Below are positions 7,141 to 58,070 of a DNA stretch of 64,000 bases, piece by piece (position 1 is the stretch's first letter; every line of letters begins with the position of its first letter). Origin of the DNA: Thermoanaerobaculia bacterium (lineage in GTDB: Bacteria; Acidobacteriota; Thermoanaerobaculia; Multivoradales; JAHEKO01); NCBI GenBank assembly GCA_049664225.1, contig JBATEX010000133.1, forward strand, positions 919 to 64,918, written 5' to 3'. The notes beneath the pieces are model-generated. The model saw only the letters and a list, made by a program, of their open reading frames with translations, was not told the origin of the DNA and did not search any database. The position numbers were made by a program, and so were the translations under genes.

Positions 7141-8253
7141 ATGAAACCCTTCAAGATCTTCACCATCCGCACGATCCTGGTTGCAGGCATTCTCAGTACC
7201 CTGCCTTGGCAAGCGGGATCTGAGCCCAGATCGGGCACTCCGCTCGCGACCGGGAACGGCCTCTCGGAAGAGGCCTTCATGAGGGGAATGATCGTCTCGT
7301 GCCCCCGCGCCGGACAGATCTGGGGCTCACCCTCGATGGTCGACGCCCTCGACCAACTCGAGGAGCTCGGGGTCGATTGGATCGCGATTCATCCCTACGC
7401 CAGGGTCAGCCGCGACGGAGCCGTGGGCAGCCGTCCAGCCAGCGAAGTCGCCTACCTCGAGCGTGCCGTCGAGATCGCCCGCACCGCTGGTATGCGGCTG
7501 TTCTGGAAACCCCATCTGGCCTATTGGGGCAGCTTCGAATGGCGTGGGGACATCGAGTTCGGCACGGATGAGGCAGCCTGGCGGCGTTTCTTCGACAGCT
7601 ATCAGGGCTTCATCGTCGACCAGGCTCGCTTCGCCCAGAGGAGCGGCGTCGAAATCTTCGCCATCGGCGTAGAGTACGAGAAGACCACGCATCGAGAACA
7701 GGACTGGCGGCGGATCATCTCGGCGGTTCGAGAGGTCTACGACGGCTCGGTAACCTATGCCGCCAATTGGGACTCTCTCGACAGGGTCCCATTCTGGGAT
7801 GCCCTGGATTGGATTGGGGTTCACGCCTACTTCCCATTGAGTCTCGATCAAGACCCCAGTCGAGAGAACCTGTGGCAGGGATGGAACGAACCCCTTCGAC
7901 AACTCTCGTCTCTTTCATCGAAGTATCGGGACAAGCCGATCTTCTTTGCCGAGATCGGCTACAGCCGATCCCACAGTGCGGCCCGTGAGCCATGGAGCCC
8001 TGGACTGGAGGACAACCCGCAGGCACTGCTGTTGCGACAGAGGCTCATCGAGGTCGCCCTGGAGCGCATCGAGGAGCAGCCCTTCGTGCGCGGCATGTTC
8101 TGGTGGAAGTGGATCCCCGGCCCGGACCCATGGGATCGAGACTTCTCGATGAAGGACCCCGAGGCCCGGCACGCCCTCGGCAGGTACTGGGTCACTGATC
8201 GAGCAGACGAGGCTTCCGGCGACCGGAGTGTCACAGCGGGATCGAACGAGTAG
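7141..8253 (+). CDS. Secreted TIM-barrel glycoside hydrolase-like protein (clan GH-A-like)
   Basis: Signal peptide MKPFKIFTIRTILVAGILS. Candidate acid/base IGVEYE and nucleophile FFAEIGYS motifs, plus FWWKW. The family is not identified with certainty. Confidence 0.55.
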   Translation: MKPFKIFTIRTILVAGILSTLPWQAGSEPRSGTPLATGNGLSEEAFMRGMIVSCPRAGQIWGSPSMVDALDQLEELGVDWIAIHPYARVSRDGAVGSRPASEVAYLERAVEIARTAGMRLFWKPHLAYWGSFEWRGDIEFGTDEAAWRRFFDSYQGFIVDQARFAQRSGVEIFAIGVEYEKTTHREQDWRRIISAVREVYDGSVTYAANWDSLDRVPFWDALDWIGVHAYFPLSLDQDPSRENLWQGWNEPLRQLSSLSSKYRDKPIFFAEIGYSRSHSAAREPWSPGLEDNPQALLLRQRLIEVALERIEEQPFVRGMFWWKWIPGPDPWDRDFSMKDPEARHALGRYWVTDRADEASGDRSVTAGSNE

Positions 8254-8272
8254 GGCCCGTGCGACTCGAAGA

Positions 8273-10654
8273 CTACTCCTCGACCAGCCGAATCGCTGCT
8301 TCGATAACTTGTTCTCTCTTGGGTAGGTAGTCGAGCTCCAGTGGAGGTGCATAGGGCACCGGGGTGTCGGGAGCGGTGACTCTGCGAATCGGCGCATCCA
8401 GGAAGTAGAAGCGTTCATCGGCGACCAACGCCGCCAGCTCTCCGGCCAGCCCACCACGGCGCGTAGCCTCGTGCACCACCAGGATCCGGCTCGTCTTCTC
8501 CACCGAATCGAAAAGCGTTTTCTCGTCCAAGGGCACAAGAGTCCGCAGATCCACGACTTCCGCATCGATTCCCTGGTCGGCCAGCGTATCGGCTGCCTGG
8601 AGAGCCGTCCACACCATCGCACCATAGGTGACGATCGTCAGATCCGATCCCCGACGCGCAACCGCGGCCTTGCCCAGCGGCACCTGATGCTCCACTCCCA
8701 GCGGCACCTCCTGTCGCAGATCGGAACGAAAGAAGCCGTAGAGCCCCTTCGACTCCAAGAAGATCACCGGATTCTCGTCTCGCACCGCGGAGATCATCAG
8801 GCCCTTGGCGTCAACGGGGTTGGAAGGAGCCACGACTTTCCAGCCCGGGGTGTGGACAAACCACATCTCCGGACATTGGCTGTGATAGGGACCTCCCCCC
8901 AGCAATGGAGACTGGGTTCCTGTCGCTCCGCCGTAGGGGAGCCGGACCACCATCGGCACGGGCCGGCCCCAACGCCAGTGAATCTTCGCCGCGTTGTTCA
9001 CCAGGGCGTTGAACGCCGGCGCCAGGAAGTCGGCAAACTGGATCTCCACGATCGGCCTCATGCCCAGCAGGGCCGCCCCGACCGCACAGCCCACGATGGC
9101 GGACTCAGCGAGTGGAGTGTTCAGGCATCGATCCTCCCCGAACCGTTTGGTCAGGCCTCTGGTGACTCCAAAGGCGCCTCCATATCGCCCACCCACGTCC
9201 TCACCCAGGACGAAGACCCCTTCGTCATCGTCCATCAACTCGGTCATTGCCTGCCGAACCGCTTCGTCGTAGGACATGGTCTTGGTCCGGGGCTCTCTCG
9301 AGATTGACGGAGAACTGGCAACGCTCGGTGCGAAGACCCGATCTCGATAGACGGCCGGCTCCGGCCATTCGGCTCTGGCGGCCTCGCCTACTGCCTCCGA
9401 TACCTGTGCTCGAGCTTCTCGCCGGAGCTCGGCCAACTCTCGCTCGGTCAGTAGACCGAGCTTGTCGAGCCTCTTGGAGTACAGCGCGATTGGGTCTACA
9501 ACCTCCCAGGCCGCCCCTTCTTCAGCGAACTCGTAGCCGGCGATCCTGGCTTCCGAGCTACCGTGGAATCGATCGTCGTCATGGTGCGCGTGACCGGCCC
9601 GGCGATAGGTAATCAGCTCGATCAGCGTCGGCCCCTGCCCCTGCCTGGCGCGCTCCGCCGCCCAGGTCACGCCGGCCGCCACTTCATCTGGATCATTGCC
9701 AAACAACGTCACACCCGGAATGCCGTAGCCAACCGCCTTGGCGGCGAACCGGCGCGCTACCGTCTGCTCAGAGACGTGGGTGCCCAGAGCCCACTGGTTG
9801 TTCTCGACCACGAAGACCATGTTCAGTTGCTTGGCGGCGGCGAAATTCACCGCCTCGTGCCACTCCCCCAGACTCGATCCGCCGTCGCCGATGAAGCTCA
9901 CGCAAACGCGATCCTCCCGTCGCGACTTGAAGGCATAGGCCATTCCCAGGAGGGTCTGGGTTGCGGTGGCCAACGGCGCCGCCGGTGGCAGGACACCCCG
10001 ATCGAAGTCCCCCAGGTGGATGTCGCGCCCATCCACGGGCGTACCTGTCTTGCCGTACTGCACCAGGAGAGGATGTAGCGGGTCGGGAAGGAACATGAGC
10101 AGAGCGCCCAGATCGCGGATCAGGGGACTGATGTAGTCCCCTCGATAAGTCTCTCCCTGCCCGTACTCGGGATAGCGCCGCAAACGGAGGGCGGAACCCA
10201 CGATGGCCTCTTGCCCCGTCGATCGAAATCCCTTCTGCGGTGATGGAAAGGACCCCCAGCGAATCTCCTTCTTGTCGAAGGCCCGCTTCAAGACTTCGTC
10301 CACCTCACGGGTCAGCAACATGGTGCGCAGCATCAGCCTGCGCTCATGCGGTGTGAGGCTCGCCTTGATACGTCGGCGATCGAAGAAGCCGCGTACCAGC
10401 GTCTCGAGGTCCCGCCTGCCCCCCGACACCGCCATCTGATGTGTCATGGCCGGGTAGAGCTCCGCGGCGGCGAAGCCGGGACCGGTCCGATAGCGCTCAG
10501 CTATGCGCCCGAGAAGCGCTTTCTCGAGGCGGTGCTCAGTCGTGACCTGCGGCAGATCTCGAATCAGAAACGGCGCTTCGAGACTCAGGAAGGCGTGCAG
10601 CTCCCGCAGCAGATCTCTAGTCAGGGGGGCCGGAGGCGAGGACGACTCGGGCAT
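8273..10654 (-). CDS. 2-oxoacid dehydrogenase E1 component, fused alpha/beta subunits (TPP-dependent)
   Basis: 793 aa. N-terminal half carries the TPP motif GDGGSSLGEWHEAVNFAA...VVENNQWA. C-terminal half is a typical E1-beta/transketolase-like Pyr plus C-terminal domain. Confidence 0.88.
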   Translation of the reverse strand: MPESSSPPAPLTRDLLRELHAFLSLEAPFLIRDLPQVTTEHRLEKALLGRIAERYRTGPGFAAAELYPAMTHQMAVSGGRRDLETLVRGFFDRRRIKASLTPHERRLMLRTMLLTREVDEVLKRAFDKKEIRWGSFPSPQKGFRSTGQEAIVGSALRLRRYPEYGQGETYRGDYISPLIRDLGALLMFLPDPLHPLLVQYGKTGTPVDGRDIHLGDFDRGVLPPAAPLATATQTLLGMAYAFKSRREDRVCVSFIGDGGSSLGEWHEAVNFAAAKQLNMVFVVENNQWALGTHVSEQTVARRFAAKAVGYGIPGVTLFGNDPDEVAAGVTWAAERARQGQGPTLIELITYRRAGHAHHDDDRFHGSSEARIAGYEFAEEGAAWEVVDPIALYSKRLDKLGLLTERELAELRREARAQVSEAVGEAARAEWPEPAVYRDRVFAPSVASSPSISREPRTKTMSYDEAVRQAMTELMDDDEGVFVLGEDVGGRYGGAFGVTRGLTKRFGEDRCLNTPLAESAIVGCAVGAALLGMRPIVEIQFADFLAPAFNALVNNAAKIHWRWGRPVPMVVRLPYGGATGTQSPLLGGGPYHSQCPEMWFVHTPGWKVVAPSNPVDAKGLMISAVRDENPVIFLESKGLYGFFRSDLRQEVPLGVEHQVPLGKAAVARRGSDLTIVTYGAMVWTALQAADTLADQGIDAEVVDLRTLVPLDEKTLFDSVEKTSRILVVHEATRRGGLAGELAALVADERFYFLDAPIRRVTAPDTPVPYAPPLELDYLPKREQVIEAAIRLVEE

Positions 10655-51515: not shown

Positions 51516-52466
51516 TCAACCGGCAGCGGCCACATGCTCGTGAGCGTGATAGCTGCTTCGCACCAGGGGACCGGACTCGCAATGCTCGAACCCGAGAGAC
51601 AGGGCAAAGCTCCGGTAGCTGCCGAACTCTTCAGGGTGCACCCATCGATCGACGGGAAGATGGGCCGGAGTCGGCTGCAGGTACTGGCCGATAGTCACGA
51701 TTTCCACACCGGCTTCTCGGATGTCCCGCAGGGTCTCTTGAACCTCTTGTGAGCTTTCTCCCAGCCCGACCATGATCCCTGTCTTCAGGCGCCCTGAGAA
51801 CTCACCGCCGTCCTGGCGCGCAGCAACCGACTCCAGCAATTCCAGAGAACGCTCGTATCGGCTTCCGGGTCTCGCCGTCCGGTAGAGCCGGGGTACGGTC
51901 TCCATGTTGTGGGAGAAGACCTCCGGAGCGGCACCCAGAACGATGTCTACGGCCTCTGGCACGCCCCGGAAATCGGGGGTCAGTACTTCGACGGCGGTAC
52001 CGGGAGTGCGTCGATGAATGGCCTCGATGACCCTGGCGAAATGCGCCGCTCCACCATCGGCCAGGTCGTCCCGATCCACCGAGGTGACGACCGCATGTCT
52101 CAAGCCCATGGCCGCGACCGCTTGGGCGACGTGCCCTGGCTCGTCCTCCTCCACTCCGGGTCGAGGTCTGCCTGAGGTCACTGCACAGAAACCGCATCGG
52201 CGCGTGCAGATGTCGCCCAGAATCATGAAGGTGGCCGTGCCGTGCTCCCCCCAACACTCGTAGATGTTGGGGCATCGGGCCTCCTTACAAACCGTGTTCA
52301 GGCTCAAGCCCTCGACGAGGCCGTTGACCTCGTGGTAGCGCCGGGGCGTCGAGAGCCGAATGCGAAGCCAATCCGGGCGGGGCTGCCGGGAAGAGTCGGC
52401 TGATTGGCTCTCGCCGATTTGGATCAGAGAGTCGGACACGGGAGCCCCGATTCTATAGGACCGCAA
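51516..52466 (-). CDS. lipA: Lipoyl synthase
   Basis: CKEARCPNIYEC (CX4CX5C) and radical-SAM CTRRCGFC motifs. Confidence 0.93.
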   Translation of the reverse strand: MRSYRIGAPVSDSLIQIGESQSADSSRQPRPDWLRIRLSTPRRYHEVNGLVEGLSLNTVCKEARCPNIYECWGEHGTATFMILGDICTRRCGFCAVTSGRPRPGVEEDEPGHVAQAVAAMGLRHAVVTSVDRDDLADGGAAHFARVIEAIHRRTPGTAVEVLTPDFRGVPEAVDIVLGAAPEVFSHNMETVPRLYRTARPGSRYERSLELLESVAARQDGGEFSGRLKTGIMVGLGESSQEVQETLRDIREAGVEIVTIGQYLQPTPAHLPVDRWVHPEEFGSYRSFALSLGFEHCESGPLVRSSYHAHEHVAAAG

Positions 52467-52487
52467 GTCGCCTCGAGTCCTCGGCCC

Positions 52488-53924
52488 TCATCCCTTGATC
52501 ACCCCGATCGGCTTCAGCTGTGCGACTTTGCGACTGATCCCTGCTCCTTCTACTACATCGACCACCGCCGAGACGTCCTTGTAGGCCTCGGGCATCTCCT
52601 CGGCGACGGTGGCCATGCCTGCGGCCATGACCACAACTCCTTCTCTCTCGAGCTCGTCGAGCAGTCTCCGTCCTCTGGCCTGCTTCTTGGCCTGCCTACG
52701 GCTGAGTCTCCTACCCGCGCCATGACAGGTGGAGCCAAAGGTCTCGCGGTAGGCTCTCTCGGTCCCCACCAGCACGTAGGAATACCGTCCCATGTCTCCG
52801 GGTATCAAGACGGGCTGACCGACCTCCCTGTAGGCTTCGGGTGTCTGAGGGTGACCAGGAGGATAGGCCCTGGTGGCACCCTTCCGGTGGACACAAAGGC
52901 GTCGGCTGCGTCCCTCGATCTCGAAGGTCTCGAACTTCGCGATGTTGTGGCAAACGTCGTAGACCACCGTGAGACCGGCCTGGCTGGGCCCCAGACTCAG
53001 GGCCTGCATGAAGCTCTCGCGAGCCCAATGGGCCATGACCTGCCGGTTGGCAAAAGCGAAGTTGGCCGCCGCCGACATGGCGCCCAGATAGTCGCGGCCT
53101 TCCGGGGACTGGAGCGGCGCGCAGCAGAGCTGACGATCGGGCAGCTCGATGCCGTAACGGGCGGCGGCTTCGACCATCACCCTCAGGTGGTCCGAGCAGA
53201 CCTGATGACCGAGGCCTCGGGATCCACTGTGAATTGTCAGGGTCACCTGATCCTGAAATAGCCCCAAGGCAGCCGCAGCCACCTCGTCGTAGATCTCGGC
53301 CACGTACTGGATCTCAGCAAAGTGATTTCCGGAGCCCAGTGACCCGAGCTGACTGCGCCCTCGCTGATAGGCCCTGTCCGAGACGAGATCCGGCCGCGCG
53401 CCCTCAATGCAGCCGTTCTCTTCCAGGAACTCCAGATCCTCCTCGTAGCCCATTCCCCTGTCGACGGCCCAGGCTGCCCCTTGGGCCAGAACCTGGGTCA
53501 ACTCCTGTCGACTCAACCTCAGATCGGTGCGGCCCTTGCCGATGCCGGTAGGAATGTTCTGGTAGAGGCGGGTAACGAGATCCCGCACTCTGGGCTGGAT
53601 TTCGGCGCGACTCAGACCTGAGCGCAAGAGGCGGACGCCTCAGTTGATGTCGTAGCCGACGCCGCCAGGCGAGACAACGCCCTTCTTGCTGTCCATCGCC
53701 GCCACGCCACCGATGGGGAAACCGTAACCCCAGTGGATATCGGGCATCGCCATGGAAGACCCGACGATTCCCGGCAGGTGGGCGACATTGACCACTTGCT
53801 GGAGGCATGGATCCTGGTGCATCTCACCCATCATCTCCGCGCTTGCGAAGACGAGACCCTCGACCCGCATCTTCCCCCGCTTGGGAATTCGCCAACGGAA
53901 CTCGTCGATCTGCTCGATATGCAT
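52488..53924 (-). CDS. rtcB: RNA 3'-phosphate/tRNA-splicing ligase RtcB with in-frame TGA (53640..53642) at the conserved Cys codon: candidate selenoprotein (alternative: pseudogene)
   Basis: Two same-frame ORFs joined by one TGA: ...[19 protein letters not shown].... Downstream catalytic His context STCHGAGRR is intact. 478 codons, typical for RtcB. A SECIS-like hairpin lies downstream of the TGA, and archease is next door. Confidence 0.75.
53606..53626 (-). promoter_or_regulatory. Candidate bacterial SECIS stem-loop (UGCGCUCA-GGUC-UGAGUCGCG) 14-34 nt 3' of the rtcB UGA
   Basis: Pairs A24-U29, C23-G30, U22-A31 and C21-G32; bulged U33; then G20-C34, C19-G35, G18-C36 and U17-G37 (numbering from the U of UGA = 1). 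Apical loop is GGUC. Confidence 0.55.
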
Positions 53925-54017
53925 CGTCCCCGATCCTCCACGCAGATGCTTCAGAGATAGCCCGCCCTCAGACAGACAGGCTACGCCTGTCGTGCAACGG
54001 CTGCAAGCGCCGTCGAT

Positions 54018-54440
54018 TCAAAGGTCGAAGATGACTCGTGCCGACCAACCCGTTGTCGAGGACTTCACCCTCAGTTGATGGTAGGTGACCGCCTTGATCA
54101 GCGTCTTGATCTCGTGCCGGTCAGGATCGTAGCGCTCACCCCGAACCGTTCCACGGAGACGCCAACCGCCGCCCTCCGCCTCGACTTCGAGATCGGTCTG
54201 GCGCAACAGAACCGACTTCGTCTCGAAGAGGTAAACAATCTCGCTGAGCCACTCGACCAGCAGGTCTTCTCGACTCGGGGCGATGAGATCGATCGGCAGC
54301 TCGAGCTCGAGATTAAGCCGTTCCACCTCGGTCAGGGTATCGGTCAGAGCCAGGAGGCCCTCGGACAGCAGACTCTCGAAGCTGGCCCCCTCGATCTCGA
54401 CACCCATGTCGGCCGTGTGCTCGATGAACCTGTAGGCCAT
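54018..54440 (-). CDS. Archease (RtcB activator)
   Basis: MAYRFIEHTADMGVEIEG... and C-terminal IKAVTYHQLRV...GWSARVIFDL; 140 aa. Its ATG overlaps the lipB TGA by 1 nt. Confidence 0.9.
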   Translation of the reverse strand: MAYRFIEHTADMGVEIEGASFESLLSEGLLALTDTLTEVERLNLELELPIDLIAPSREDLLVEWLSEIVYLFETKSVLLRQTDLEVEAEGGGWRLRGTVRGERYDPDRHEIKTLIKAVTYHQLRVKSSTTGWSARVIFDL

Positions 54441-55153
54441 CAGTGCTTCAACTGCTCGGGACTCACCGCGAGCGGGCGACGATGAAAGACCTCGGCCAGG
54501 TGCCGGGCACAGAGATCGGCCAGGTCCTCGATTGGCATGGTCCGGCCCGTGAGCTCGGCGACGGAGGTCATCTCCACTCCCTGGAGGCCGCACGGCACGA
54601 TTGCGGCGAAGTAGCTCAGGTCGGTGTTCACGTTGAGAGCGAAGCCGTGGGTCGTGATCCAGCGGCTGACGTGAACACCGAGGGAGGCGACCTTCCTGCC
54701 GTCCACCCAGACTCCGATCTCGGGGCTTTGCGACCTCGCCTCAGCGGACAGACCGACCTCGGCCAGCACCCGGACCAAAACTTCCTGCAGATCGCGCACG
54801 TAGCGCCGAAGATCACGTCGATCCGGGGTCAGATCGAGGATCGGATAGCCCACGAGCTGACCGGGACCATGGTAGGTGACCTGTCCGCCACGGTCACATT
54901 CCACGACCTCCACTCCTCGGGTCCGCAGCCACTCACGGTCCGCCAGGACATCGGTGCGGTTGGCGTTGCGACCCAGCGTGTAGACGTGGCCGTGCTCGAG
55001 CAGCAACAACGCATCGTCTGCCCCACCTGACCGGATTCGCTCCCGGCGATGCTCCTGCAGCACCATGGCCGACCGGTAGTCGAGCCTGCCGAGGTAGCTC
55101 CACTCAAGGTCTCGCTGGTTGGTTTCTCTCACTTGAGGACTGCTGTCGATCAA
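54440..55153 (-). CDS. lipB: Lipoyl(octanoyl) transferase
   Basis: RGGQVTYHGPGQLVGYPILDL, KVASLGV and PCGL motifs. Confidence 0.92.
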   Translation of the reverse strand: MIDSSPQVRETNQRDLEWSYLGRLDYRSAMVLQEHRRERIRSGGADDALLLLEHGHVYTLGRNANRTDVLADREWLRTRGVEVVECDRGGQVTYHGPGQLVGYPILDLTPDRRDLRRYVRDLQEVLVRVLAEVGLSAEARSQSPEIGVWVDGRKVASLGVHVSRWITTHGFALNVNTDLSYFAAIVPCGLQGVEMTSVAELTGRTMPIEDLADLCARHLAEVFHRRPLAVSPEQLKH

Positions 55154-55190
55154 AGCAACAACACCTTCGCGGCATGTCCGAGCCGGTCGA

Positions 55191-56579
55191 CTATTGGAAC
55201 GAGTCGAGCTCGGACCAGCTTTCTTCCAGCAGCGTTCGCCGGAGGTGATTCATGAAGCTGTCGGCCTCCGCACCATCGATCAGACGATGATCGAAAGTCA
55301 GGGCGAAATAGCACATCGTCTTGATCGCGATTCCGTCGTTGCCATCGGCATCGGTTTCGACGACAGGGCGCTTCTCGATGGTGCCGATGCCCAGGATCGC
55401 CACCTGGGGCTGGTTGATGATGGGAGTTCCGAACAGCGATCCGAACACACCGGGATTGGTCACCGTGAATGTCCCCCCCTGCACCTCCTCCGGGCTCAGG
55501 CGTTTGCTTCGAGCACGCTCGGCTAGATCGTTGGCGGCCTTGGCAAAACCTACCAGATTGAGCCGATCGGCATGCCGAATCACCGGCACCAGAAGGCCCC
55601 ACTCGAGAGCTACAGCCATGCCCAGATTGATGTCCTTCTTGCGCACGATGTCGGTGCCGTCGATGGACGAATTGAGGTTCGGATAGGCCGTGAGCGCGTT
55701 GGCAACCGCTTTGAAGATGAAGGGCATGAACGTGAGCTTCGTACCGTGCGTCTGCGCGAAGCCTTGCTTGGCGCGCGCTCTCACCCTGGCCACTCGGGAG
55801 AGGTCGACATGGAAGACCGTACTGACGTGCGCCGAGGTTGCCTTGGAATAGACCATGTGGGCCGCCGTCAACCGGCGGATTCTGGACATCGACTCGATTT
55901 CGACGTTGTCTCCCTCGCTGTAGGCGGCCACTTGGAAGTCACCGGTTCGCTGTCGAGGAGCGGTAACCAGCTCTGCGCTCCGCATCGGGGACGCTGGAGT
56001 TGGAGTCGGTGTAGCTGTCGTCGCGGGAGTCACCACCGACCTTTTCTCCAGGAAGGCCAGCATGTCTTGCTTGGTCACCCGCCCGTGGATTCCGGTGCCC
56101 TCGACCCGAGTCAGATCGACCCCCTCCGCGGCGGCCATCTTGCGGACCAAAGGGCTGGAGAACCGGCGGATCCTATCGACCAACTGACCATCCTCGGCTG
56201 AATCCCCATCCTGCCTGGGAGTAGCTTCCGGCGCTGGTGGTGGCGGCTCTTCCACTACTACCTCCATGGACTTCGCCGCCTCCACGTCCTCGATTTCGGG
56301 GGCAGGAGGCTCTGACGCGAGCTCTGAATCCACTTGCTCGGTAGGTTCTCCGACAAGGGCGACCAGCTCATTGACTTGGACTGTCGCGCCCTCCCCGTGA
56401 TGGACTACCAAGAGAACTCCGGCAGCCGGGCTGGGGATTTCGGCGTCTACTTTGTCGGTCGAAATCTCGAACAGCGGCTGGTCTCTCTCCACCCGCTCCC
56501 CCACCTGGACCAACCACTTGGTGATGGTGCCCTCAACGATGGACTCACCCATCTGAGGCATGATGACTTCCGTTGCCAT
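55191..56579 (-). CDS. 2-oxoacid dehydrogenase E2 dihydrolipoamide acyltransferase
   Basis: N-terminal lipoyl domain (EISTDKVDAEIPSP), Pro/Ala linker, subunit-binding domain (SPLVRKMAAAEGVDL) and catalytic DHRLIDGA. Confidence 0.92.
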   Translation of the reverse strand: MATEVIMPQMGESIVEGTITKWLVQVGERVERDQPLFEISTDKVDAEIPSPAAGVLLVVHHGEGATVQVNELVALVGEPTEQVDSELASEPPAPEIEDVEAAKSMEVVVEEPPPPAPEATPRQDGDSAEDGQLVDRIRRFSSPLVRKMAAAEGVDLTRVEGTGIHGRVTKQDMLAFLEKRSVVTPATTATPTPTPASPMRSAELVTAPRQRTGDFQVAAYSEGDNVEIESMSRIRRLTAAHMVYSKATSAHVSTVFHVDLSRVARVRARAKQGFAQTHGTKLTFMPFIFKAVANALTAYPNLNSSIDGTDIVRKKDINLGMAVALEWGLLVPVIRHADRLNLVGFAKAANDLAERARSKRLSPEEVQGGTFTVTNPGVFGSLFGTPIINQPQVAILGIGTIEKRPVVETDADGNDGIAIKTMCYFALTFDHRLIDGAEADSFMNHLRRTLLEESWSELDSFQ

Positions 56580-56672
56580 GTAGGACTCTCCCTTACTCGA
56601 CTCGATATCCCGGCTCGGGCGTCAGGGACCAACGAGACCCGAGCACGAACCGATCCACTCTGCACTACCCCA

Positions 56673-58070
56673 TCAGATATGGATCGCATGCCCGACGGCT
56701 GCGTGCGCGGCCTCGGCGACGGCCTCCGACAGAGTCGGATGGGCATGAATGGTGCGAAACAACTCCTCTGTCGTGGACTCGACCTGAAGCGCGACACAGG
56801 CCTCGGCGATCAGCTCTGTGGCATGGCGACCGATGATATGGACTCCGAGAAGCTCATCGTACCGAGTCTCGCGAACGATCTTGACGAACCCTTCAGTGTG
56901 TCCCTCGATCGCCGCCTTGGCCAGTGCCGTGAAAGGAAACTTGCCCGTGGTCACCTCATATCCACGCTCTATGGCCTGGGCTTCAGTCAGGCCGACGCTG
57001 GCCACTTCCGGCTCACAATAGGTGACAGCGGGAATCCGATCATAGTCGATCGGCCGCACGTGCCGACCTGCCAGGTGCTCGGCGACCAGAATGCCCTCGG
57101 CCGAAGCCACATGTGCCAGCCAGGGGGTGTCGACGACGTCGCCGATGGCGTAGATGTGGGGAACATCGGTCTGCATGAGCTCGTTGACCTCGACGTAGCC
57201 CCGATTGAGGCGAATTCCCAAGGCTTCGAGACCGAGGTCCGAGGTCACCGGCGCACGCCCGACGGCCACCAACAGCGCCTCGGCCGTCAGGCTCTTGCCG
57301 CCTCCATCTTCCCTGTCGATTTCGATCTCCAAACCACTGTCTGTGAGCACGGCATCTTTCAACCGACTGCCCGTATGGATCTTGATGCCTCTCTTCTTCA
57401 GGGAGCGTTGAAGCTGCCGCGAAATCTCCTCATCCTCGAGGGGCAATACGCGGGGCAGCATCTCTACCAGAACGACCCCGGATCCAAAGGAGTTGAAGAT
57501 CGACGCGAACTCGCAGCCCACAGCTCCTGCGCCCAGCACCACCAATGAGGTGGGAACATTCGACACCTCCAGGAGATCATCCGAGCTCAGCACACGCTTG
57601 CCGTCTGTGGGTAGGAACGGCAGCTGACGCGGAACCGAGCCCGTCGCGATCAGGATGTGACGCGCTTCAAAGGTCGTCGTGCCGCCCTCTCCTGCCACCT
57701 CGACCTCGTGGCTGCCGACGAGTCTTCCCCTGCCCCGAACACCTTCGACGCCGTACTTCTTGAACAGATACTCGATTCCTTTGGCGCTCTTGTCGACCAC
57801 TTGCTGTTTGAAGGCCTGAGCCTTCTCCAGATCCAGGCTCGGCGAAGCCACCTCGATGCCGAATCTCTCCGCCGAGCGAATCTCGTCGAGCATGCCGGCG
57901 GTGCGGAGGAGCGCCTTGGTGGGAATGCAACCTCGATGCAGACAGGTGCCGCCGAACTTGGGGTCCTTCTCCACTACGCTGACCTTGAGACCCAGCTGCG
58001 CAGCACGAATCGCGGCGACATAGCCGCCGGGACCGCTACCGATGATGACGAGGTCGCGTTGTTCTGCCAT
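56673..58070 (-). CDS. lpdA: Dihydrolipoyl dehydrogenase (E3)
   Basis: GSGPGGYVAA FAD motif, redox-active GGTCLHRGCIPTK, and C-terminal HAHPTLSE. Confidence 0.93.
   Translation of the reverse strand: MAEQRDLVIIGSGPGGYVAAIRAAQLGLKVSVVEKDPKFGGTCLHRGCIPTKALLRTAGMLDEIRSAERFGIEVASPSLDLEKAQAFKQQVVDKSAKGIEYLFKKYGVEGVRGRGRLVGSHEVEVAGEGGTTTFEARHILIATGSVPRQLPFLPTDGKRVLSSDDLLEVSNVPTSLVVLGAGAVGCEFASIFNSFGSGVVLVEMLPRVLPLEDEEISRQLQRSLKKRGIKIHTGSRLKDAVLTDSGLEIEIDREDGGGKSLTAEALLVAVGRAPVTSDLGLEALGIRLNRGYVEVNELMQTDVPHIYAIGDVVDTPWLAHVASAEGILVAEHLAGRHVRPIDYDRIPAVTYCEPEVASVGLTEAQAIERGYEVTTGKFPFTALAKAAIEGHTEGFVKIVRETRYDELLGVHIIGRHATELIAEACVALQVESTTEELFRTIHAHPTLSEAVAEAAHAAVGHAIHI

Follow-up and report, generated by a model that had tools for sequence, protein, structure and literature searches.

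Does the UGA codon that interrupts the rtcB gene of a Thermoanaerobaculia bacterium end translation, or is it read as selenocysteine (Sec)? The gene lies on the minus strand at 52488..53924 of a 64,000-nucleotide stretch of contig JBATEX010000133.1 (assembly GCA_049664225.1), referred to here as the window, and is predicted to encode an RtcB-type RNA ligase of 478 residues with one in-frame UGA at the position of the metal-bridging cysteine (Cys). We conclude that codon 95 of the full-length gene is very probably decoded as selenocysteine, and that Sec-RtcB appears to be a genuine and widespread selenoprotein form.

The rtcB reading frame comprises 479 codons on the minus strand, running from an ATG at 53924..53922 to a terminal TGA at 52490..52488 that coincides with a conserved C-terminus (...GVIKG). 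Its translation (Met1...Asn94-Sec95-Gly96...Gly478) contains a sole internal stop, the TGA of codon 95 at 53642..53640, for which selenocysteine is predicted. The list of open reading frames (ORFs) cuts the gene into two segments of one frame, 53640..53924 (94 aa) and 52488..53627 (379 aa, with a TTG start). Residues 2–478 align with the solved RtcB structures of Thermus thermophilus (2epg, E=1.9e-190) and Pyrococcus horikoshii (1uc2/4dwq, E=2.7e-175), and the alignment sets the TGA against P. horikoshii Cys98, which corresponds to Cys122 of the human enzyme and Cys78 of that from Escherichia coli. This residue joins the two Mn2+ ions, and ligase activity is lost when its counterpart in the E. 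coli, human or P. aerophilum enzyme is mutated to alanine (PMC10630183); the Cys has been described as invariant, essential, oxidation-sensitive and a weak point under oxidative stress (PMC12263435, PMC10653391, PMC10630183). The catalytic motifs are otherwise intact and include D92 (GYDIN), H201 (SGNHF), H232 (IHSGSRG), H326 (CHNIAK) and H401 (STCHGAGRR), equivalent to the P. horikoshii metal ligands Asp95, His203, His234 and His329 and the nucleophile His404. At the codon level the Cys98 that characterizes the family is replaced by TGA, and Sec, if so decoded, would be its chemical analogue; judged from these alignments the window gene is a variant of the RtcB family (PF01139) and not a non-member. 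Homologues from the protein search match PF01139, and so do both called pieces of the gene in a related locus (L201; loci of relatives are given by L numbers).

An earlier note on this DNA had read the two same-frame ORFs as a single rtcB gene with an in-frame TGA at the metal-bridging Cys as its only lesion and with the nucleophile context STCHGAGRR kept downstream, and each of these points agrees with the coordinates, translation and structural alignment described above. It had further stated that TGA is a genuine stop elsewhere and the code is not reassigned, and TGA is indeed an ordinary stop in the window, where it ends 27 checked ORFs including those of lipB, the RtcB activation factor archease, lipA and rtcB itself.

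The interrupted gene recurs widely. Searching protein sets with the UGA of the query replaced by Cys gave more than 20 distinct proteins of 379 aa at 97–100% identity, originating in JGI, ENA, Logan and NCBI assemblies, and five at 89–91% identity; every retrieved 379-aa sequence begins with MRSGLSR, corresponding to the TTG just after the TGA. The nearest full-length homologues (P0001–P0005; 478 aa, ~90% identity) have Cys at this column. Among 75 representative genomes, 54 have TGC at this codon, 15 have TGT and six have TGA; the set is biased toward Cys because the pattern used to gather it spelled out that residue. The six TGA genomes are an Acidobacteriota metagenome-assembled genome (MAG), a member of Ca. 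Marinacidobacterales, one of the Thermodesulfobacteriota, two of the Nitrospirae/Thermodesulfovibrionia and one Deltaproteobacteria MAG. A degenerate pattern requiring TGA finds TGA-containing rtcB on at least 120 metagenome contigs. Genes with TGA or a Cys codon at this position are referred to below as Sec forms and Cys forms, respectively.

The Sec forms diverge to 51% protein identity (median 63%) and make 58 Sec-only clusters at 90% identity, and 85 of the 86 with a complete 3′ part keep 379–396 open codons past the TGA. The lone contig with a second lesion is L087, in which the frame degenerates from 3811 onward, ~55 codons past the UGA, and reaches a stop at codon 75; the lesion reflects either an indel from assembly or a genuine pseudogene. 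Comparison of the window gene with two Sec forms (L201 and L001) and a Cys form (L202, with TGT at the codon that is TGA in the window and in L201) gives ratios of nonsynonymous to synonymous substitution (dN/dS) of 0.07–0.11 for codons 1–94 and 0.055–0.09 for codons 96–478, at synonymous divergences (dS) of 0.8–1.8, values indicating that both halves of rtcB are under strong purifying selection.

The UGA is followed by a hairpin resembling a bacterial selenocysteine insertion sequence (bSECIS), located on the minus strand at 53607..53625 with the arms GCGCUCA and UGAG(U)CGC, a GGUC apical loop at 53618..53615 and a bulged U at 53610. The published criteria (PMC13188914) are a loop of 3–9 nt with G in the first two loop positions, an upper stem of 4–16 bp, a spacing of 16–37 nt and a minimum free energy of -7.5 kcal/mol or lower. 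The window hairpin passes all four, with its GGUC loop, a 4-bp upper stem, 21 nt between the UGA and the apical loop, and -8.7 kcal/mol. As a fixed 20-nt segment it folds at -8.6 kcal/mol, compared with -4.1±2.1 kcal/mol for synonymous recodings.

The relatives provide the stronger signal. The best downstream hairpin has a median energy of -14.5 kcal/mol in Sec forms and -8.9 kcal/mol in Cys forms (p=2e-13), and the published bSECIS model is passed by 103 of 121 Sec forms and 17 of 69 Cys forms (p=1e-16), with a spacing of exactly 21 nt in 75 of the 103 passing Sec forms. The codons that make up the hairpin are nearly fixed in 60 Sec forms picked by the peptide RSGLSR alone (CGC in 60, UCA in 59, GGU in 51, YUG in 60, AGC in 57 and CGC in 58), compared with a gene-wide usage of 0.15–0.41 for the same codons, and the four preceding codons vary freely among up to six synonyms. 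The peptide-only selection replaced a first codon-entropy test, discarded as circular, in which the genes had been picked by an expression that itself fixed some of the hairpin bases.

Two further groups show covariation. In a variant clade RNAalifold finds the hairpin with six of nine pairs compensated (e.g. GCGCUCC/GGAGCGC versus GAAGACC/GGUCUUC). In a third group, mostly Nitrospirota-like, the Sec-RtcB genes carry an element at +15 to +54 relative to the UGA in which a single A is unpaired in a stem of ~15 bp and the A-rich loop measures 9 nt; members of the group include L027, L029, L083, L093, L104, L105, L110, L112 and others. In this long-stem class eight of 15 pairs carry double changes, 84.9% of cells are paired as against 36–55% with slid partners, and none of 500 shuffles is as good. 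RNAalifold did not recover the stem in this class, and the support comes from the explicitly specified stem. Members often lack a G in the first two loop positions and most fail the consensus bSECIS model, yet the stem covaries.

The hairpin also appears to shape the protein. Besides position 411, the columns that best separate Sec from Cys proteins are residues 102, 103, 105 and 106, which lie inside the hairpin, and the peptide following the UGA is S102-G103-L104-S105-R106 in place of the T-N-L-T/x of most Cys forms. The RNA element seems to dictate S-G-L-S-R at residues 102–106, and the family illustrates cleanly how such an element can constrain the protein encoded there.

An approximate neighbour-joining tree of 142 complete sequences places at least 16 changes between Sec and Cys, and both states occur in one 90%-identity cluster, whose members include 478-aa Cys proteins as well as 379-aa proteins of the TGA type. 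The closest pairs are the Cys form L005, 95% identical to the Sec form L181, and the Cys form L202, ~90% identical to the window gene. Several Cys genes near Sec forms keep the hairpin characteristic of the 60-gene class (class A) almost unchanged, at L005:10283–10342, in L018 (Cys codon +60 nt) and at L202:3543–3605, the last with UCG replacing UCA, which leaves a G-U pair. These Cys genes look like recent Sec-to-Cys conversions that carry a fossil SECIS.

The earlier note had favoured Sec recoding over gene decay, a preference backed by the recurrence of the TGA, the open frames, purifying selection, the Cys homologues and the covarying hairpin. It had pointed to the ortholog column and to additional lesions in relatives as informative: Cys homologues prove to have TGC or TGT, with TGA recurring at one codon across phyla, and apart from L087 the frame past the TGA stays open in the 86 Sec forms with a complete 3′ part. 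Its statement that a SECIS-like hairpin follows the TGA stands as to presence, with a strong comparative signal; alone, the hairpin is only modest evidence.

Several observations weigh against selenocysteine and have to be set beside this evidence. Within the window, 3.2% of synonymous recodings fold as well as the fixed hairpin segment, and the generic best-hairpin energy is not significant, since 75% of synonymous recodings fold equally well. Moreover, seven of the 27 genuine TGA stops in the window (26%) also pass the permissive bSECIS criteria. The bSECIS model is unspecific in a genome of 62% GC, and the criteria being permissive, the weight rests on the conservation and covariation of the hairpin. 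The chemistry raises a separate doubt: a soft selenolate is no obvious ligand for hard Mn2+, and the functional rationale is uncertain. A further caution is that an engineered P. horikoshii RtcB with Sec in place of Cys98 (C98U) is reported to self-cleave (PMC4150793). Finally, a search of the 64-kb window and of ~2 Mb of relatives' flanks found no selA, selB, selD or tRNA-Sec gene that could be tied to this genome, a result that is uninformative rather than negative. In the window, ARAGORN finds no tRNA genes and an Rfam search at the gathering threshold gives no match; on 2 Mb of relatives' loci ARAGORN finds 22 tRNAs, none of them tRNA-Sec. Searches by tblastn with E. coli SelA and SelD and with the SelD of locus L022 match neither the window nor any Sec-form flank, the matches being L022 itself and two weak ones in the Cys-form loci L006 and L008. 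Among the true stops that pass the bSECIS criteria are those of rtcB, archease and lipA, and some hairpins after true TGA stops may be attenuator- or terminator-like.

Locus L022 comes from a Thermoanaerobaculia MAG with a Cys-type rtcB. Its selD gene (7532–8557, plus strand), ~3 kb downstream of the archease–rtcB pair, contains an in-frame TGA at 7574–7576 that aligns to Cys17 of E. coli SelD (GGG-U-ASK) and is followed by a hairpin, GGAGCC-GGA-GGCUCU; ORF callers start the gene past the TGA, at 7586. The gene is predicted from this alignment to encode a Sec-containing SelD, from which it would follow that the Sec trait exists in the wider lineage.

The window was also scanned for other selenoprotein candidates. 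A raw scan for ORF pairs split by TGA was useless at 62% GC, with 267 matches. A targeted scan, for a TGA with a GGU-loop hairpin after it, yielded 14 matches, not all inspected singly, and revealed no convincing second selenoprotein gene; the strongest match checked outside rtcB (40644, minus strand) does not share the frame of its gene.

Among the alternatives to selenocysteine, the one that survives best is that the UGA is read through with another residue, either Cys delivered by a thiophosphate-derived Cys-tRNA(Sec), or Trp or Cys inserted by near-cognate suppression. The inserted residue cannot be told from sequence, and SelB-dependent delivery of Cys-tRNA(Sec) at scarce selenium fits the hairpin and its conservation equally well. 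However, at least 16 switches and the retention of UGA and SECIS in at least 58 lineages imply a benefit over TGC or TGT, which are one mutation away, and near-cognate read-through needs no conserved GGU-loop hairpin at a fixed 21-nt spacing. We regard read-through without Sec as very unlikely.

A second alternative, to which we assign a slightly smaller probability still, is a split gene, in which the UGA acts as a stop and ribosomes reinitiate five codons on, at a TTG or ATG, yielding a two-piece RtcB of 94 and 379 aa. The earlier note had found neither a Shine-Dalgarno sequence nor an ATG for the C-terminal part; this was not upheld as stated, since the TTG at 53627 sits 10 nt after a GAGG (derived from UGA-GG), and the matching codon is ATG in 47 of 60 related class-A Sec forms. 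Gene callers likewise predict both pieces. Such a ligase, though, would be without the metal-bridging Cys and the next four residues, and an alanine at this Cys kills the enzyme (PMC10630183). The covarying GGU-loop hairpin would be left unexplained and would occlude the restart codon, methionine or leucine at the restart position is also seen in Cys forms, and in the unbiased set the stop is TGA in all six interrupted genes, a small number, with no TAA or TAG.

A nonsense-inactivated, decaying pseudogene would account for an internal stop in an otherwise normal gene and has one possible instance in the frameshift-like lesion of L087 (1/86), but the comparative evidence refutes this reading: 85 frames out of 86 stay intact across lineages as distant as 51% identity, dN/dS is ~0.06–0.11 in both halves at a dS of ~1, the archease gene upstream is intact and the stop always falls at one codon; its probability is minimal, and the divergence of the relatives excludes copies of one assembly artefact. 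Equally negligible is a sequencing or assembly error for a true TGC or TGT, each a single base from TGA, or a reassigned code (tables 4 or 25) with TGA as sense, given that this TGA is shared by more than 20 near-identical sequences, which come from four independent data sources, and also by L201 and L001, and given the 27 checked ORFs that TGA ends, rtcB among them at its conserved C-terminus. An intein-containing RtcB (NCBIfam NF038162 / NF052663) was rejected, as the gene has no inserted sequence and scores 741 bits against a cut-off of 1150; the NF038162 match falls in two stretches, the better of which places protein residues 94–478 on profile positions 578–961 and starts at the TGA position.

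Selenocysteine at codon 95 is therefore the reading that we adopt, and it suggests a mechanism that is standard as recoding, with a placement of Sec that is chemically unusual. The hairpin 21 nt past the UGA, with its GGUC loop, would act as a bacterial SECIS and recruit SelB–GTP–Sec-tRNA(Sec) (GTP, guanosine triphosphate) to the ribosome, so that the UGA would be read as Sec and not as a stop; translation would then run for 383 codons more to the normal TGA. Sec95 would replace the Cys that bridges two divalent metals in the GTP-binding/guanylylation site, beside D92, H201, H232 and H326, H401 would be the guanylylated nucleophile, and the archease encoded upstream would activate guanylylation as in other RtcBs. 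We infer SelB-dependent decoding, selenium incorporation and a functional benefit; in our view the benefit is most likely that an oxidation-prone metal ligand would resist irreversible oxidative inactivation, possibly with altered metal affinity or selectivity. More tentative, and rather doubtful as a whole, is the joint proposal that Sec-RtcB answers the oxidative fragility of RtcB, that it is the first selenoenzyme in RNA ligation and repair, and that switching tracks oxygen or selenium. If it is true, a selenolate would protect the ligase from the irreversible, metal-catalysed kind of oxidation against which metazoa deploy PYROXD1 and thioredoxin, and the metal preference might shift; Sec would be a ligand in a binuclear, non-redox nucleotidyl-transfer site, and the at least 16 Sec/Cys switches would follow how much oxygen or selenium is available to lineages of sediment and soil.

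The rtcB gene lies within a group of minus-strand genes. A GGAGG at 53935..53939, 10 nt upstream of the rtcB ATG, resembles the Shine-Dalgarno consensus. Directly upstream is the gene for a 140-aa archease (54018..54440, minus strand; PF01951, E=1.2e-38), whose ATG overlaps the stop codon of lipB (cTGATGg); lipB occupies 54440..55153 (minus), and genes for the 2-oxoacid dehydrogenase E2 and E3 components are located further upstream on the same strand, the region spanning 51516–58070. A lipA-like radical S-adenosylmethionine gene (51516..52466, minus) is immediately downstream of rtcB. No terminator-like site is present in the stretch from lipB to rtcB. The gene order is kept in L201 (Sec) and L202 (Cys), each with a 140-aa archease in the same position, and an archease gene immediately precedes rtcB in 92 of 97 Sec forms and 58 of 64 Cys forms. 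The archease gene being intact and adjacent, the partner gene of a working RtcB has been retained. In both L201 and L202, nadA and other nicotinamide adenine dinucleotide (NAD) genes are inserted between rtcB and lipA. The lip and 2-oxoacid dehydrogenase surroundings are an unexpected neighbourhood for an RNA repair module.

Public protein sets hold the gene as 94 aa plus 379 aa (or 362 aa), some entries being named "tRNA-splicing ligase RtcB" (e.g. the window gene and L201:9704–11140), and the 379-aa form takes as its start codon a TTG or ATG that lies within the SECIS hairpin. The two-product records amount to a systematic annotation error that runs through JGI, ENA, NCBI, Logan and MGnify and leaves 94-aa and 379-aa fragments in the databases. 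A natural Sec-RtcB was not found in the main text of the 2022 and 2026 prokaryotic selenoproteome reviews, and the main text of the latter, which lists more than 110 families with accessions in a table, nowhere mentions RtcB, PF01139 or "ligase". Nor was one found in the main text of the deep-Sep, BSepDB (supplementary family list outside the scope) and Olavius symbiont papers, in the literature under older enzyme names (subscription-only papers outside the scope) or in NCBIfam 20.0. Sec-RtcB is apparently new and uncatalogued, in the sense of not found and not of proven absent. With it the prokaryotic selenoproteome would gain a widespread family that is not among its usual redox enzymes, and the natural Cys/Sec pairs, with relatives at 90–95% identity, offer a test of selenium at the metal-bridging ligand of a non-redox enzyme.

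The closest known systems are the Cys-containing RtcBs. Those of P. horikoshii (PH1602), T. thermophilus (TTHA1785), E. coli (RtcB) and human (RTCB) resemble the window gene over its full length (E=1e-190 to 1e-131), and they have the other metal ligands and the His nucleophile motif in common with it; the gene for the partner archease is adjacent in the window. They differ in having the metal-bridging Cys, in place of which the window gene has the UGA with its SECIS hairpin and an altered downstream peptide.

The hairpin is comparable to that of E. coli fdhF and to the consensus bSECIS in its location within the coding region just after the UGA and in its small apical loop starting with G-G-U, and, like the consensus, it has a 4-bp upper stem with further pairs beyond the bulge. 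The fdhF apical sequence, which we take to be CAGGUCUG, is identical to that of the window hairpin. The bulged U of fdhF is on the 5′ side; the bulge of the window hairpin is on the 3′ side (U53610), and its stem is shorter. The long-stem class of Sec-RtcB genes, with a 15-bp stem and a 9-nt loop, departs from the consensus bSECIS.

Replacement of a metal-ligand Cys by Sec in proteins that have Cys homologues is also seen in [NiFeSe] hydrogenase, in the Mo/W-Sec formate dehydrogenase and in metal-binding selenoproteins (PMC13188914). These proteins function in redox chemistry or metal handling, whereas RtcB is a GTP-dependent RNA ligase that acts by nucleotidyl transfer, and its metals, Mn2+ in the enzymes studied, are believed to retain their oxidation state during catalysis.

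Cys98 is also the +1 extein residue in P. horikoshii RtcB (PMC4150793), and the Sec codon at 53640–53642 is at the exact site of the archaeal RtcB intein, so that one residue hosts Cys, an intein junction and Sec. The engineered C98U variant of the P. horikoshii enzyme carries Sec at exactly the position predicted for the window gene (PMC4150793). That protein was made artificially with UAG and EF-Tu, whereas the natural genes have a UGA with a SECIS and are evolutionarily stable.

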